Positions 1,650-58,995 of a DNA stretch of 64,000 nt are shown here, in pieces. The number at the start of each line of letters is the position of its first letter. Positions within the stretch are counted from its first letter, which is position 1. A model generated the notes under the pieces. It saw only the letters and a list, made by a program, of their open reading frames with translations, was not told where the DNA came from and did no database searches. Source of the DNA: Mustelus asterias (Eukaryota); the NCBI RefSeq assembly GCF_964213995.1, contig NW_027590117.1, positions 1,240,001-1,304,000 on the forward strand, read 5' to 3'. The position numbers and the translations under genes are program-made.

Positions 1650-3915
1650 GTCAGTGTGCAATGAATACTCTCTCAATCTATCAGCGTGTGTGCGTGAAGA
1701 ATCAACTCTCTCAATCTATTACTGTATGGGTGTGGAATTAACTCTCAATCTATTAGTGTGAGAGTGTGGAATTAACTCTCTTTCAATCTATTACTGTGTC
1801 TCAGTGTGTAATTAACTCTATCTTAATCTAGTGCTGTGTTTGGGTGGAATTAACCTTCTAACAATCTATTACTGTCTGTGTGTGTGTGGAATTAAAACTC
1901 TCTCAATCTAACAGTGTGTGTGGGTGTGGAATTAACTTTCTCTCAATCAGTTGCTGTGTGTCGGTGTGGAATTAACTCTATCTTAATCTATTACTGTGAG
2001 AGAGTGTGCAAGTAACACTGACAATCTATTAGTGTGTGGTTAACTCTCTCTCTCTCAGTCTATTACTGTGAGAGAGTGTGGAATTAACTCTCCCTCTCAA
2101 TCTATTACTGTGTGAGAGTGTGTTGAATTATCTAGCTGACAATATATTACTGTGTGTGTGTGTATGTGGAACTAACTCTCTCTCAATCTATTACTGTGTG
2201 AGAGTGTGTGGAATTAACGAGCTGACAATATATTACTGTGTGAGTGTGTGTGTGTGTGTGTGGAACTAACTCTCAATCTATTACTGTGTGAGTGTGTGTG
2301 TGGTGTGTGTGGAACTAACTCTCTCTCAATCTATTACTGTGTGTGTGTGTGGAGTTGACTCTCTCAATCCATTAGTGTGTGAGAGTGGCAATTATAATTG
2401 TCTCAATCCACTACTGTGTGTCAGTGTGGCAGAAACTCTCTCTCAATCTATTACTATGTTTGAGTGTGGCAGTAACTCTCTGACAATCTATTACTATGTG
2501 AGAGTGTAGAATTATCACTCTCTCAATCTGTTACTGTGTGTAGAATTAATTCTCTCTCAATCTATTAAGGTGTGTGAGTGTGTAATTAACCCTCTGTCAG
2601 TCTATTACTGTGTATGAGTGTCGAATTAACTCTCTCAATCTATTAGTGTGTGAGTGTAGAATTAACTCTCTCACTCTATTACTGTGTGTGAGTGTGGAAA
2701 TGACTCTCTTCTAATACTTTATCGATTACTGTGCAGAATTAACTCTCTCAATCTATTATTGTATGTGAGTGTGGAATTAACTCTATCCTATTACTGTGTG
2801 TGCATGTGTGCGTGTGTGTGGAATTAACTCTCTCTCAATCTATTCCTCTGTGTGATTGTGGAAGTAGCTCTCTCAATCTATTGCTGTGTGTGTGTTGAAT
2901 TAACTCTCTCGCAATCTATCACTGTGATTTTGGGATTAACTCTCTCTCAATCTATTGCTCTGTCAGTGTGGAATTAACTCTCTCTCAATCTATTGCTCTG
3001 TCAGTGTGGAATTAACTCTCTCTCAATCTATTACTGAGTGCGAGTGTGCAAATAATACTCTCTCAATCTATTACTGTGTGAGAGGGTGGAATTAACTCAC
3101 ATCTATTACTAGGTGCGAGTGTGCAATTAACTCCCTCTCAATCTATTCCTGAGAGTGTGTGGAATTAACTCTCTCTCAATCGATTACTGAGTGTGAGTGT
3201 GGAATTAATTCTCTCTCAATCTATTACTGTCTGAGAGGGTGGAATTAACTCCCATCTATTACTATGCATGAGTGTGGAATTAACTCCCTCTCAATCTATT
3301 CCCGAGAGTGTGTGGAATTAACTCTCTCTCAATCTATTACTATGTGATAGTGTGGAATTAACCATCTCAATCTGTTAGTGTGTGTGTGTGGAATTAACAC
3401 CCTCTGAATTGAATTGTGAGAGAGTGTGGAATTATCTCTGTCAATCTATTACTGTGTGCGAGTGTGCAATGAATAATCTCTCAATCTATCACTGTGTGAG
3501 TGTGTAATTAACTCTCTCAAACTATTACTGTGTTTCAGTGTGGAATTAACTCTCAATCTATTACTGTGTGTCAGTGTGGAATTGACTCTCTCTCAATCTA
3601 TTGCACTGTGTGCGAGCGTGGAATTAACTGTCTCTCACTGTATTGTTGTGAGGATGGAAGAACTCTCTCTCAATCTATTACTGTGTGAGAGTGTGGATGT
3701 AACTCTCTCTCAATATGTTACAGTGTGAGAGTGTGAAATTGACACTCTCTCAACCAATTACTGTGTATGTGTAATTAACTCCCTCTCAAACTATTACTGA
3801 GTGTGAATGTGGAATTAACTCTCTCTCAATCTGTTACTGTGTGATTGTGGAAATAACTCCCTAGCTATCTATTAATAATGTATGCAATTAACTGTCAGTG
3901 TCTGTTACTGTATGG
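1650..3915 (+). repeat. Tandem satellite array, ~35-40 bp unit (GTGTGGAATTAACTCTCTCTCAATCTATTACT)
   Basis: Dozens of directly visible diverged tandem units. Confidence 0.95.
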
Positions 3916-12154: not shown

Positions 12155-12485
12155 TTTTTTTTTATACTTTTCCAATTCAATCAAATCAAATCCAATTCAG
12201 AGTTTCAACAAGTTGAGACATTTCAGATCCAGGCTGACAAGACAGGACGGGAGACCAAAACCACCCTGTCCTGGGCCTGATCTACATGAGTCAAACTGAT
12301 TGGAGAAGGGGGAGGATCCTCCTCCAAGACTTGAGCTCATTTGCATCTTAGCCAAAAGGCCGAGATGCCGCTTTTAAAAATTGCTTCATATCAAACATAT
12401 GAAACCTCAGCGTAACCTAATGACCTCAACCAAGTGCAGGCAATCCATACTACACTTGATCTTAGCCAAAAGGCCGAGAAGCGAT
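12155..12485 (-). mobile_element. U2 snRNA-headed short retroposon, copy 1 (candidate SINEU-like element)
   Basis: Starts exactly at U2 +1: ATCGCTTCTCGGCCTTTTGGCTAAGATCAAGTGTAGTAT (12485-12447); non-U2 body; internal repeat TCTCGGCCTTTTGGCTAAGAT; A9 tail; homologous to 50316-50648. Confidence 0.85.
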
Positions 12486-30596: not shown

Positions 30597-30656
30597 CTCT
30601 GCTGTGGAACTGCGATCTCTGCTGTGGAACTGTGATCTCTGCTGCGGACCTGTGAT
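30597..30656 (+). repeat. 3 x 20-bp tandem repeat CTCTGCTGTGGAACTGTGAT
   Basis: Directly visible. Confidence 0.85.
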
Positions 30657-30659
30657 AGG

Positions 30660-33188
30660 AATAGATTGTGAGCAACTTAATTCCACACTCTCACACAGTC
30701 ATAGATTGAGAGGGAGTTTATTCCACACTGACATACAGTAATAGAGAGAGAGAGATAAACTCTCACACAAGAAAAGATTGAGAGAGATTGAATCCACACA
30801 GACACACAGTAATAGATTGAGAGAGAGTTAATTCCAAACTGACACAGTAATAGATTGAGAGCCGAGTTAATTCCACACTCACATACTGTAATAGATTGAG
30901 AGAGAGATAATTCCACACTGACACAGTAATAGACTGAGAGAGAGATAATTCCGTACTCTCACACAGTAATAGATTGAGAGAGAATTCCACATTCACACTA
31001 ATAGATTGCGTGAGAGTTAATTCCACACTGACAAACAGTAATAGATTGAGAGAGAGTTAATTCCACATTCACATACAGTAATAGATTGGGAGAGAGATAA
31101 TTCCACACTGACACAGTAATAGATTGAGAGAGAGATAATTCCACACTTACACACAGTAATAGATTGGGAGAGAGATAATTCCACACATACACAGTAATAG
31201 ATTGAGAGTTAATTCCACATTGACATACAGTAATATGTTGAGACAGAGAGGTAAATCCACATTGACACACAGTAATAGATTGAGAGAGAGATAATTCCGT
31301 ACTCTCACACAGTAATAGATTGAGAGAGCGATAATTCTGTACTCTCACACAGTAATAGATTGAGAGAGAATTCCACATTCACACTAATAGATTGCGTGAG
31401 AGTTAATTCCACACTGACAAACAGTAATAGATTGAGAGAGAGTTAATTCCACACTGACAAACAGTAATAGATTGAGAGAGAGTTAATTCCACACTCATAC
31501 AGGTAATAGATTGAGGGACCGTTAATCCCACAGTCACACACATAAATAGTTGAGAGGGAGTGAATTCCACTCCGATACATAGTAATAGATTGAGAGAGAG
31601 TTAATTCCAGACTGACACAGTAATAAATTGAGAGAGTTATTTCCACTCTCTCACACAGTAATAGATTGAGAGAGAGTTAATTCCACACACTCTCACTGTA
31701 ATAGATTGAGAGAGAGCTAATTCCACACTCTCTCACTGTAATATATTGAGAGAGAGTCAATTCCACATTCACACACAGGAATAGATTGAGAGTTAATTCC
31801 ATGCTCTCACACAGCAACAGATTGAGAGAGAGTTAATTCCACACGTACACACAGTAATAGATTGTGAGAGAGTGAATTCCACACTGACACAGGAATAGAT
31901 TAAGAGAGAGATAATTCCACACTCTCTCACTGAAATAGATTGAGAGAGAGATAATTCCACACTCTCTCACTGTAATAGATTGAGAGAGAGATAATTCCAC
32001 ACTCTCTCACTGTAATAGATTGAGAGAGAGATAATTCCACATTCACACACACTAATAAATTGAGAGTTAATTCCATGCTCTCTCGCAGCAACAGATTGAG
32101 AGGGAGTTAATTCCACACGTACACACAGTAATAGATTGTGAGAGAGTTAATTCCACACTGACTCAGGAATAGATTGAGAGAGAGTTAATTCAACACACTT
32201 TCACAGTAATAGATTGAAGGTTAATTCCACACTAACACGCAGTAAGAGATTGAGACAGAATTAATTCCACAGGAACATACAGTAATAGATTGAGAGAGAG
32301 TGAATTCCACACTCTCTCACACTAATAGATTGAGAGAGAGTTAATTTCACTTTCATACAAATAATAGATTGAGAGAACGTTAATTCCACACTCTCACACA
32401 ATAAAAGATTGAGAGAGTGAATCCACACAGATTCACAGTAATAGATTGAGAGAGCGTTTATTCCAGCCTGACACACAGTAATACATTGAGAGAGTTATTT
32501 CCACACTGACACTGTAATAGATAGAGAGTTAATTCCACACTCTCACATACAGTAATAGATTAGAGAGTTAGTTGCACTCTGACACAGTAATAGATTTAGG
32601 GAGTTAATTCCACACTGACACACAGTAGTAGTTTGAGAGAAAGTTAATTCCACACCCTCACGCAGTAATAGATTGGCAGTAAATTGCACACGCACACATG
32701 GTAATAGATTGAGAGGGAGATCATTTGACACTGACACGCAGTAATAGATTGAGAGAGAGTTAATTGCGCGCACACACACAACACACACACAACACACGGT
32801 AATAGATGAAAGAGAGAGTTAATTCCACACTGACACAGTAATAGATTGAGACAGAGAGTTAATTCCAAAATTTCACAGAGTAATAGATTGAGAGAGAGTC
32901 AATTCCACATTCACACACAGTAACAGACTGAGAGAGAGTTAATTCAACACTGACACACAATCGTAGATTGAGAGAGAGTTAGTTCCACTCTCACACAATA
33001 ATAGATTGACAGACAGATGATTCCACACACACACAGTAATAGATTGGAAGGGAGTTAATTCCACACTGACACACAGTAATAGATTGAGAGAGAGTTAATT
33101 CAACACTGACGGACAGTAATAGATTGAGAGAGTTAATTCCACACTGACATGCAGGAATAGATTGAGAGAGCGCTAATTCCACACATAG

Positions 33189-33227
<39 letters not shown>

Positions 33228-34105
33228 CAGAGATTGAGGGAGTTAATTCCACACTCTCACACAATAATGGATTGAGAGAGTTAATTCCACACTCACACAC
33301 AGTAATAGATTGAGAGAGAGAGTTTGTTCCACTGTCACACAGTAATATATTGAGACAGTTAATTCCAGACTGACACACAGAAACAGATTGAGAGAGAGTT
33401 ATTTCCGCACTCTCACACGGTAATAGATTGAGTGAGAGTTAATTCCACAGTCAGACAGTAATAGATTGAGTTAATTCCACACACACACAGTAATTGATTG
33501 AAAGAGAGATAATTCCACACTCACGCACAGTAATTGAGAGAAGGTTAATTCTACACTCACACGCAATGATAGATTGAGAGGGAGTTAATTCCACATTCAA
33601 ACACAGTAATAGATTCAGAGAGAGTTAATTCAATACTGGCACACAGTAAAAGATTGAGGGAGAGTTAATTCCCTGCTCGGACACAGTAATAGATTGAGAT
33701 ATAATTCCACACTGACACACGGTAATTGATTGAGAGAGTCAATTCCACACTCTCACAATGTAACAGATTGAGAGTTAATTCCATAGTGACATTGAGTAAT
33801 AGACTGAGAGACAGTTAATTCCACATTCATACAAGTAATAAATTGAGGGACCGTTAATTCCACACTCTCACACAATAAAAGATTGAGAGTTACTTCCACA
33901 CTCTCACACAATGATCGATTGAGAATTAATTCCACACTCTCTCACAGTAATAGATTGAGAGAGTTACTTCCACACTCTCTCACAATAATAGATTGAGAGA
34001 GAGTTAATTCAACACTGACACACATGAATAGATTGAGACAGGGTTAATTCCGCACCCCCACACAATGATCGATTGAGAGAGAGTTAATTCCCCACACTCA
34101 CTATG
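30660..34105 (-). repeat. Satellite array, same family as 1650-3915, opposite orientation
   Basis: Units CACACAGTAATAGATTGAGAGAGAGTTAATTCCA are the reverse complement of the first array. Confidence 0.95.
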
Positions 34106-46189: not shown

Positions 46190-46271
46190 GCTGCCGTGGC
46201 TGCGTGGTTAAGGCGATGGATTTGAAACCCAATGGAGTTTCTCCGTGCAGATTCGAACCCTGCTGGCAGCG
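46190..46271 (+). pseudogene. tRNA-Ser(TGA), degenerate
   Basis: GCTGCCGTGGCTGCGTGGTTAAGGCGATGGATTTGAAACCCAATGG...ATTCGAACCCTGCTGGCAGCG; several stem mismatches. Confidence 0.8.
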
Positions 46272-46481
46272 AGTGTGATTGGAAATGTTTGCTTTAGGCA
46301 GCCACAGAATTGCAAATCCTATTTTTTTGGAATGAATTCTTTGGATCTCCAGCATGCTTTCAGCTACATAACAGGAAGGTGAGCTTGGAAAGGACACCTG
46401 AGTGTCCTCAGTCTGGCAAGGACAAGATAGGCCGAATGGGTTCCTTCGGTGCTGTTACATTTCTCTGGTTCTTTCTAAGGT

Positions 46482-49990: not shown

Positions 49991-50068
49991 GCTGCGCTGG
50001 CCGAGTGGTTAAGGCGTTGAGAAATCCAATGGGGTTTCCCCGCGCAGGTTCGAGCCCTGCTAGCAGCG
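49991..50068 (+). pseudogene. tRNA-Ser pseudogene (4-nt deletion in the anticodon arm)
   Basis: ...AAGGCGTTG----AGAAATCCAATGGGGTTTCCCCGCGCAGGTTCGAGCCCTGC...; 78 nt versus 82. Confidence 0.85.
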
Positions 50069-50251
50069 GGTGTGATTTGAAATGTTTACTCCGCTGCTAC
50101 AGGGCAGCCACTGACTCGAAGAAGGCTCGCCATTATTTGGATATTCAGCTGCATAGCTCCGGGCTGGGTGCAGGAAGATGGGCTTGGAAAGGACATATTA
50201 ATTTGTAAATTGAATTTGTGTCTTTGTATGACCTGTTCGTGAACAGAACTC

Positions 50252-50296
50252 CCACTCACCTGATGAAGGAGCTGCAAGCGCTCTGAAAGCTAGTGG
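50252..50296 (+). ncRNA. Minimal type-I hammerhead ribozyme in a Penelope-like terminus
   Basis: CAC-CTGATGA-aGGAGC..GCTCT-GAAA-GCTA-GTG: intact core, stem II, palindromic short stem III. Confidence 0.75.
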
Positions 50297-50315
50297 CTTT
50301 TGCTACCAAATAAAC

Positions 50316-50648
50316 CTCGGCCTTTTGGCTAAGATCAAGTGTATGGACGGCAGCCCATGGTCGGCCGCACTTGGTCGAGGTCATTAGGTTACGCTGAGGC
50401 TTCATATGTTTCATATGAAGCAATTTTTAAAAGCGGCATCTCGGCCTTTTGGCTAAGATGCAAATGAGCTCAGGTCTTGGAGGAGGAACCTCCCCCTTCT
50501 CCAATCAGCTTGGCTCATGTAGATCAGGCCCAGGACAGGGTGGTTTGGTCGCTCGCCCTGTCTTGTCAGCCTGGATCTGAAATGTCTCAACTTGTTGAGA
50601 CTCTGAATTGGATTTGATTTGATTGAATTGGAAAAGTATTAAAAAAAA
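50316..50648 (+). mobile_element. U2 snRNA-headed short retroposon, copy 2, nested in a Penelope terminus
   Basis: CTCGGCCTTTTGGCTAAGATCAAGTGTA (U2 nt 8-35), body as in copy 1, A8 tail, TSD AAATAAAC at 50308-50315 and 50646-50653. Confidence 0.88.
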
Positions 50649-52454
50649 TAAACCTGTTGGACTTTAACCTGGTGTTGTGAGATTTCTTGCTGTGTCCTTG
50701 GACTGGCATGGCAGGATAGGTTCAATGGCTTCCTTCTGTGCTGTTATTTTTCTATAATTCTTCCTATGGTTCGATGAGAAAATTCATAACATGAACATGT
50801 TTTTTTAAAGCAGCATCAAGGCACAAAGACAAAACACGGTCTCATGTCAGAGGAAGATTCTTATGCAATGGCATAAGAATGCACACAGAGCATTAAATAA
50901 TCAGAATACATTGAATGAATATTTCAAAATGCTGCTTCGATGATATCACATCATGTTCATTCAAACACATTGCAACAAGCTGGTCACTACTGGGCGTTCT
51001 GTATTCTTGGTTATAACAGTTTGGGAATGGAAGGAGCAGGTTCACATCTGCACATTGACAGGGTCAAACTGTGTCTCAGATTGACAGCTCCCAGGACAGG
51101 CTTTCCTCTCGCTCTGTGCTGTGGATTCTCAGGGATTTGTTGGAGTTTCCCGGCTCAGTAACTGTAAAAGCCTCTGAGGCCGGTGCTGCTCCCCAGATTC
51201 AGGGGGCTGCAGCCAATCAGAGCAGTGCTTCATTTAACCCAGAACTGGTTGAAATGATGATATTGTTCACAAGCTGAATTCTATTTGATCAGATGAAGGT
51301 ACAGATTGTGTGCACTCAGTCACTAAACAACAATATCCTGCCTTCACATAGAGTCGATGAGAGTGGTTGGAGGGAGAGACAGAGACAGAGTGAGTTAGGG
51401 CGGCGAGACACAGACGGCCAGACAATGTCTCAGTGACATAAATCCTTGTAAATTCTGGCTTTAGCCAGAAAGATTCTCTTGGAGAAACAGAAGCTGCAGT
51501 ATCAGTTCTCACTGATATTGTGGAAGAGACACATTATTAATCCCACACTCAGGAACAGTGCTGCCTTTTCACAGAAGAGATGGGGAGAGGCAAAATAAAC
51601 TGAATGGTCCAGTTCGAAACAGTGTGCAGGCTCAGAGGGAGTGAGGTTCAGGGAGATATTTGAAAGTGAGATAGTTTCGGACAGTCGTTCGCAAAGTGGA
51701 TGGGATCCTTGGCTTCACAAATGGAAGCACTGAGTGTCCATTGGATCCCTCATAATCCATTGTGAGAAAGGAGGCCATTTGCCCATTGCATCTGCACTGA
51801 CTCGCTGGAAGAACATCTTTTCCCATGGCTAACCCTCTTAACCTACACATCTTGGGTCATTAAGGGGCAATATATCATGTCTAATCTATTTATTCTGCAC
51901 ATCTTTAGTCTTTGGGAGGAAACTGGAGCACCTGGGGAAAACCCATGCAGATACAGGGAGAATGTGCAAACTCCACACAGTCAGCCATGGAGGAATTGAG
52001 CATGGGTCTCTGGCGCTGTGAAGCAGCAGCGCTAACCAGTGCCACTCTGCTGGTGTAACTTTAACAATCCAATTCCTTTCTGAATGCCTCACTTGAAGCT
52101 GCATCACCACATTGTCAGACAATACAACCCAGAGCTGAACTACTCGCTGTGGGAAAGGGTTTTCTCATTATGCTTCAATCACTAACGAAGGGTCAGTAAA
52201 TTGGTCCACGGGGGTGAAAGGGTTTCATATGATATGACCCTTCATAAACTGGGTCTGTATTCTCTGTGATTCACAAGCATGAGAGGCAAAACATTAAAAC
52301 ATACAAGATTCTGAAGGGGTTTGATTTTGTGGACATTGGGAGATTGTGGAAGCTGGCTCAGTGTAAGGATCAGATCATTTCACACTGACATGAGAATACA
52401 TTTCTGCACTCATTGGGTTGTGATCCTTTGACATGCTCCATTGTTGAATACACT

Positions 52455-58349: not shown

Positions 58350-58995
58350 TTATAGAATCCAACAGCGCAGAAGGAGGCCATTCGGCCCATCGAGTCTGTA
58401 CCAACCACAATCCCACCAAGTCCTATCTCCATAACCTCATGCATTTATCCGAGCTGGTCCCCCTGACACTAAAGGGCAATTTAGCATGGCCAATCCACTA
58501 AACCCGCACATCTTTGGACTTTGGGAGGAAACCGGAGCACCCGGAGGAAACCCACTGGGAGACGTGCAAACTCCACACAGACAGTGATCCAAGCCGTAAT
58601 CGAACTCGGGTCCCTGGCGCTGTGAGGATATTGGGTTCATGTCACACTATTTGTAACCCCCACAGTTGCCTCGACCTGCAGAGTTTCACTGGCTGTCTTG
58701 TCTGGAGACAATACACATCTTTTTAGCCTGTCTTGATGCTCTCTCCACTCACATTGTTTTGTTTCTTAAAGACTTGATTAGTTGTAAGTATTCGCATTCC
58801 AACCATTATTCATGTAAATTGAGTCTGTGTCTTTATAAGCTCTGTTTGTGAACAGAATTCCCACTCACCTGAAGAAGGGGCTTAGAGCTCCGAAAGCTTG
58901 TGTGGCTTTTGCTACCAAATAAACCTGTTGGACTTTAACCTGGTGTTGTTAAACTTCTTGCTGTGAGGCAGCAGTGCGAACCACGGTGCCGCCCC
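58350..58995 (-). mobile_element. HE1-type SINE interrupted by a Penelope 3' fragment (58628-58959, plus)
   Basis: TSD GCTGTGAGG at 58619-58627 and 58960-58968; hammerhead motif CTGAAGA...CGAAAGCTT at 58861-58905. Confidence 0.85.

Follow-up and report, generated by a model that had tools for sequence, protein, structure and literature searches.

A young U2-headed SINE family in the genome of Mustelus asterias, with a Keno-like Tx1-clade LINE as its likely partner and U2 genes as candidate source loci

An insert of 330 nt at 50316-50645 of the 64,000-nt window (the whole stretch of Mustelus asterias DNA analysed here, which is part of a histone/tRNA cluster in a 3.68-Gb genome) is almost certainly a copy of a young, non-coding SINE family that is headed by U2 snRNA sequence. 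Judging from sequence comparison, this U2-headed SINE is likely reverse-transcribed by a Keno-like LINE lineage of the Tx1 clade that resides in the same genome.

Results

The insert is flanked by AAATAAAC on both sides, at 50308-50315 (the left copy, corresponding to the single one present at the site in empty paralogs) and at 50646-50653. Since CT (50316-50317 and 50654-50655) can be assigned to either side, the target-site duplication (TSD) is 8 or 10 bp long; with this ambiguity, the clean TSD that a preliminary description had reported for the copy at 50308-50655 stands with exact coordinates. All parts of the element lie on the forward strand. Its head (50316-50343) matches U2 nt 8-35 by sequence comparison, that is, a 5' truncation of 7 nt, as previously described, or of 9 nt when CT is counted with the TSD, and the head does lack, as had also been noticed, one GTA relative to both the U2 genes of the genome and a second family copy at 12155-12485 (reverse strand; L031). 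The latter copy is 91% identical to the insert, represents another subfamily, carries a full U2 1-39 head, and has no TSD that could be found. It is located ~190 nt upstream of a histone H2B gene, beside CCAAT-like boxes.

Downstream of the head, the left arm (50344-50435) comprises a subfamily-specific loop, a stretch that folds back onto the U2 head, a hairpin formed by a palindrome and a T5-A4 run, and is followed by a second, internal U2 piece (50436-50459; nt 4-27 with one change), whose position after the mid-element T5-A4 run looks as if two U2-headed units had fused. The right arm (50460-50640), a hairpin chain with GATTT-like repeats, showed no similarity to the LINE described below and no convincing Rfam family, and is followed by a short A tail (50641-50645), with five A outside the TSD or eight A including the first three of the right TSD. 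The RNA of the whole element is predicted to fold as a chain of hairpins (z -7.5), the first of which pairs the U2 head with an inverted look-alike. The covariation signal for this fold is weak because the copies are related and most changes are one-sided (one pair changed on both sides; the others are one-sided G-U swaps). T4 and T5 runs are present inside the element, no tRNA, 5S or 7SL head with an internal Pol III promoter was detected in it by Rfam and ARAGORN, and the Rfam search returned no credible source for the SINE body.

The host of the insert is a terminal fragment whose 5' part lies at 50204-50315 (84% identity to 58813-58926) and whose 3' remainder lies at 50646-50694 (94% identity to 58917-58965), with an uninterrupted 3' end available as a reference at 58627-58965, all on the forward strand. 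The intact terminus reported at ~58910-58940 is present as described, and the flanks of the insert align to it near 58900. Copies of this terminus come after an ORF that ends in ...GLNRDIGFMSHYL and a stop, and a GIY-YIG match of that ORF, albeit weak (E ~2e-4; 22.2 and 21.6 bits vs. the Pfam cut-off of 22.6 in two of two proteins scanned), supports a Penelope-like identity for the fragment. The motif CTGATGA...GAAA at ~50260-50289, seen by eye, may be a hammerhead-like core. A minimal hammerhead is described for the terminal repeat of Penelope-like elements (PMC4209133). Just 5' of the fragment, at 49993-50070, there is a degenerate tRNA-like sequence that resembles 46254-46293 and received no ARAGORN call. 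Two satellite arrays of 36-40 bp units, in opposite orientation, occupy 1650-3880 and 30650-34100 of the window.

Paralogs of the 3' flank (the best 40 of 300 candidates were scored and 30 of these examined) include units with and without the element. That is, 18 of the 30 lack it and present the empty site ...ACCAAATAAAC(C/T)TGTTGG with one AAATAAAC, and 12 carry it with the same junctions. Hence, removal of the insert restores a Penelope terminus, and the insertion is later than the Penelope fragment, both as had been proposed from the window alone; beyond that proposal, the paralogs provide true empty sites. Because the junctions are the same in the 12 filled units and AAATAAAC is single in the 18 empty ones, a Penelope fragment already in place must have received the element in a single event, after which amplification of the surrounding gene-cluster unit brought this insertion to 12 copies. 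In a comparison of seven filled units, divergence is ~0.5% in the element and ~1.8% in the flanks, and the lower divergence of the element suggests gene conversion besides duplication. The reverse nesting was also observed, with a Penelope end inside a SINE copy (L145:7091-7191; 97% identity to the reference end of the window), and therefore the activity periods of the two families overlapped.

The exact last 20 nt of the element occur 4,242 times in the genome, so the family comprises at least 4,242 members; 600 kb of arbitrary DNA (60 stretches) contained no SINE copy, which fits a density of about one per Mb. All 40 scored matches, distributed over many contigs, showed 98-100% identity. For the family-level analysis, we used a score-chosen set of 84 independent loci (90 minus six duplicates of the window site) and a positional set of 66 copies from 60 sites in order along contig C1, with one known site skipped. 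TSDs were found in 82 of the 150 copies of both sets together. Specifically, TSDs of 7-30 bp were detected at 48/84 score-chosen loci vs. 3/400 shuffled pairs and in 34/66 positional copies vs. 9/300 control draws, with ~45% of the copies having none by the test used. The 5' truncation is variable across the family, and of the 66 positional copies, 14 have U2 +1 as their first nucleotide and 41 begin somewhere in nt 1-8. Accordingly, the signature of target-primed reverse transcription that had been recognized in one copy (poly(A), TSD, truncation) is borne out by TSDs far above chance, short A tails, variable 5' truncation and empty sites; that is, it is not the case that the other copies lack TSDs and poly(A). 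The family is also dispersed, with only ~7 of >4,000 copies at the U2 site, in agreement with the earlier view that it is not restricted to U2 targets.

The head of the SINE (U2 nt 1-35/39) is identical to the U2 genes of this genome. Nearest-neighbour identity was 92-99% among 50 sequences (49 near-full-length positional copies plus the window element), and in the tree of these sequences the loop variants that follow the head largely track the clades, so that the subfamilies suspected previously do exist; the GTA-less junction is found again at almost every one of the 30 closest loci. No body joined to a different 5' partner was encountered in the 150 copies. Extra U2 heads were found at the 5' end of six loci (L033, L068, L376, L385, L386 and L389), with an extent to U2 nt 40-56 noted for L033, L376, L385, L386 and L389, and right-arm-only copies were completed by a true U2 5' end in about half of 24 loci. 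Copies frequently abut another copy (20/84 loci vs. 2/2,000 random points). At five loci (L022, L060, L070, L309 and L328) the arrangement is head-to-head, in the opposite strand of the other copy and near its fold-back stretch, which in antisense resembles the U2 sequence 5' of the target site. Six of 262 copies (L255, L274, L287, L309, L252 and L069) show 8-23 A-to-G changes each with at most one T-to-C change, on the sense strand, and the reverse pattern was found in none. Such an excess is the pattern expected of ADAR editing before reverse transcription, and these few hypermutated copies indicate a hairpin RNA intermediate. In reads of two organisms, coded A and B, the depth of the element was far above that of its unique flanks, and for further coded organisms shared sequence words hint that it may be present. 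Among the contigs consulted for its presence or absence in individuals, none spanned the locus.

A search for partners with the zf-RVT profile, in which the best 150 of 1,389 candidates were scored, recovered a LINE with an open, Tx1-type ORF1 (ZCCHC3-type domains, zinc knuckle) and an open ORF2 encoding an APE endonuclease, RT and zf-RVT. Its RT region is 46% identical to a protein named Tx1 149 kDa, five copies of its ORF2 are 96.5-99.5% alike, and its exact 3' end occurs 722 times. Full copies begin with U2 1-33/35, and the same head types are found on the LINE and the SINE. LINE tails are joined to U2 nt 39 in 23 of 722 cases, 15 of which belong to one tandem array, and SINE tails in six cases plus one (L378) with a 1-nt variant. 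SINE and LINE alike are inserted at U2 nt 38/39, the Keno site. An array at G000:C24:44.81-44.94 Mb (L141) consists of ~15 repeats of an 8,035-bp tandem unit in which one U2 gene is intact and a second U2 is joined at nt 39 to a broken LINE copy; that is, a LINE insertion was amplified along with the U2 array.

The two elements also occur together. In a main-array U2 gene (L166), LINE and SINE stand in tandem within one TSD, and in 9 of 33 cases the LINE tail leads directly to a SINE, within 120 nt. In an unselected stretch (the first 77 Mb of C1), a SINE tail was found within 400 nt of 1 of 15 LINE tails, which is far below 9/33, yet above the 0.008 expected. However, when the body and tail of the SINE were compared with a full LINE copy, the U2 piece was the sole match (E 0.66 for the best one otherwise).

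For the targets of the SINE, the expectation of an L1/Tx1-like A-rich logo did not hold, since no L1-like TT|AAAA was present and the logo shows nothing more than AA where the TSD begins, which is in part a product of how it was built; AATAAA was found in 4/150 5' flanks vs. 1.3% in the background. CTGTT stood near the tail in 7/142 cases vs. 0.6%, and several of these cases are Penelope sites. The SINE tail followed by CCTGTTGGACT, i.e., the Penelope end, was found at 75 junctions. Large contigs account for 48 of them, the event of the window for 12 and other small contigs for 15. The 48 dispersed junctions compare with ~4 expected from motif frequency (52 per 600 kb), and two control motifs of similar frequency (43 and 48 per 600 kb) gave 0 and 0 junctions. 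The 30 junctions examined are diverse in subfamily, in TSD length and in where the SINE starts, and 28 of them have Penelope DNA on the 5' side (by eye), which indicates independent insertions; antisense Penelope junctions numbered five, about the uniform expectation. The Penelope end is thus a recurrent weak target and not a chance site, and its sequence, A-CCTGTT, resembles A-TCTGTT at the U2 site. Another common repeat, which we take to be HE1-like, was rejected as a preferred target (5/84 vs. 161/2,000). For the LINE, four identical junctions at the Penelope end represent one event among 722 tails, with ~8 expected at the SINE rate (P ~0.003). This single event counts against the LINE as the sole partner, and the SINE insertions at Penelope ends may be the work of a different or an older Tx1 subfamily.

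A variant U2 unit, with a 448-bp period and 85-90% identity to the main U2, harbors SINE copies with five loop variants as well as LINE copies at the U2 site. Its tandem array is short (G000:C21:28.05-28.08 Mb; L144, L149 and L380-L384) and crowded with LINE and SINE insertions. The last upstream bases of the variant unit followed by the U2 head occur at 13 places. Among these extensions, one dispersed SINE (L376) has a 16-bp TSD and 92 nt of variant-unit upstream DNA, and another (L386/L387) has a TSD and 13 nt, both being capped by a fresh U2 piece past nt 39; L385 carries 10 nt and a LINE (L377) 91 nt of the same DNA. A TGT(C/G)AAAGA motif, presumably a U2 promoter motif, is situated at -52 in the main U2 and at -54 in the variant. 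No SINE directly behind the main U2 promoter was found with the one head type searched. Two matches for main-U2 flank plus SINE were dismissed, as they include only ~5 nt of flank, which is chance-level. Copies inside variant U2 genes, together with upstream DNA on dispersed, TSD-flanked copies, suggest U2 loci as sources, and the 5' extensions are compatible both with transcripts that start in U2 units and with template jumps to read-through RNA from these units. Whether U2 loci would be the main source of the SINE is, in our assessment, evenly balanced.

Discussion

Taken jointly, the sequence data make it probable that the SINE is copied by a Keno-like Tx1-clade LINE, and plausible that it is transcribed from source copies in U2 genes. 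Under this model, the ORF2 protein of the LINE would nick DNA at AA, prime on the A tail of the SINE and copy it; the endonuclease would retain a weak remnant of U2 preference, so that most copies land at other places, among which the neighborhood of earlier copies and the Penelope end, whose sequence resembles the U2 site, would be hot spots. Jumps of the reverse transcriptase to U2 RNA would add or complete heads, and a copy inserted into a U2 gene at nt 38/39 would gain an upstream snRNA promoter and an exact U2 5' end.

Several alternative hypotheses need to be weighed against this model. It is rather unlikely that a different L1/Tx1 family, perhaps one with a preference for Penelope ends, accounts for most of the movement of the same SINE, with the LINE found here merely sharing its hot spots. 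The strong Penelope preference of the SINE (75 junctions, 48 of them on large contigs with ~4 expected) is nearly absent for the LINE, the two have no common tail, and scoring covered only the best 150 of 1,389 zf-RVT candidates, all of which favor a different mover; on the other side, the exact U2 nt 38/39 site, the TSDs of tandem LINE-SINE pairs and the U2 1-33/35 head types are common to both. That the SINE might instead have arisen from the Keno-like LINE by internal deletion, as a non-autonomous derivative, would account for the U2 head at the start of both, but with nothing in body or tail matching beyond that piece, this idea is refuted for the LINE found and is highly improbable overall. 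Only slightly less improbable is that there is no SINE at all, but rather independent chimeric retrocopies of a structured host RNA to which template switching added a U2 piece each time. Fresh U2 additions do occur (the five loci with heads past nt 39 and about half of the 24 right-arm-only loci); however, the head-body junctions are constant per subfamily and follow the tree, almost all of the closest loci have the GTA-less junction, and the 150 copies include no body with another 5' partner.

The alternative to U2 loci as sources deserves more weight, even though we consider it less probable than not. That is, the SINE may be transcribed from arbitrary flanking promoters or by read-through (e.g., from Penelope repeats or histone/tRNA clusters), with the copies in U2 genes being dead ends. 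Very few copies reside in U2 genes, the window copy is part of a histone/tRNA cluster, within which it was amplified 12-fold, and transcription from flanking sequence has been proposed for crocodilian SINEU (Kojima 2015, PMC4494074). Yet, 5' ends pile up at U2 +1, and the one common 5' extension that was traced comes from a U2 unit.

As far as the consulted sections of that paper go, SINEU is found in crocodilians only (Kojima 2015, PMC4494074), and these sections describe many of the features seen here. Like SINEU-1/-2/-3, the shark element has a U2-derived head, a second internal snRNA piece, a length below 500 nt and an A tail; it also shares with SINEU the TSD or target loss, tandem copies around the TSD, recurrent 5' addition of snRNA, a weak preference for another transposon and Tx1 partners with U1/U2 heads, and with SINEU-1 the lack of a tail in common with the LINE (PMC4494074). 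That is, the structural features of SINEU are present: a U2 head, ~330 nt in multiple copies with subfamilies, an A tail with TSD, and added snRNA pieces; target sharing between SINE and Tx1 is seen at the U2 site and in tandem and not at Penelope ends. The same sections of PMC4494074 also reveal differences, in that crocodilian SINEU prefers Mariner-N4_AMi, whereas the extra target here is the Penelope end, and among crocodilian elements the U2-headed subfamilies of SINEU-1 are described as ancient and the copies of Tx1-Mar as old (85-87%), whereas the shark family and its intact LINE are young. Further, unlike what is described there for crocodilian SINEU, no U1 piece was seen here and copies lie inside U2 genes. 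We therefore classify the element as SINEU-type outside crocodilians on the basis of its structure, and an origin independent of crocodilian SINEU is likely.

The LINE can be compared with Keno, which the sections covered of PMC4494074 and PMC4640811 place in the Tx1 clade as U2-specific, the junction at U2 nt 39 being reported for Keno and Utopia (PMC4640811). It resembles Keno in its APE-type endonuclease and in a 3' flank starting from U2 nt 39 (PMC4494074; PMC4640811), but unlike Keno it has only 23 of 722 tails at U2, i.e., relaxed specificity; since its insertion is not U2-specific, we call it Keno-like and not Keno, a placement made by features. Template switching to snRNA likewise adds 5' pieces in U6-L1 and other snRNA chimeric retrocopies, as described in part of PMC4494074. 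Unlike U6-L1 chimeras, the chimera described here is inherited as subfamilies, in thousands of copies. In the papers searched, we found no non-crocodilian or shark SINEU, no other snRNA-headed SINE and no Penelope-targeting Tx1 (the covered portions of PMC5499810 gave zero matches, and those of PMC5786205 and PMC5381603 none); Repbase, Dfam and subscription papers, outside this scope, may hold an entry.

We offer, as a tentative synthesis with somewhat less than even chances, that this is an independently evolved, still active snRNA-headed SINE, which a relaxed Keno-like LINE now and then drops into nt 38/39 of tandem U2 units. These units would provide its promoter and head and serve as launch loci for thousands of copies elsewhere, and Penelope ends would be a secondary target because they resemble the U2 site. 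In the sections of PMC4494074 drawn on here, the transcription of snRNA-headed SINEs without internal promoters is left open and the partner LINEs are old. With a young family present in one genome together with an intact LINE as candidate partner and with candidate source loci, mobilisation, target relaxation and promoter borrowing become directly testable, and the young insertions are possible population markers. If true, U2 launch loci would explain how promoter-less SINEU elements are transcribed, and a second lineage would show that Keno-type LINEs spawn such SINEs repeatedly.
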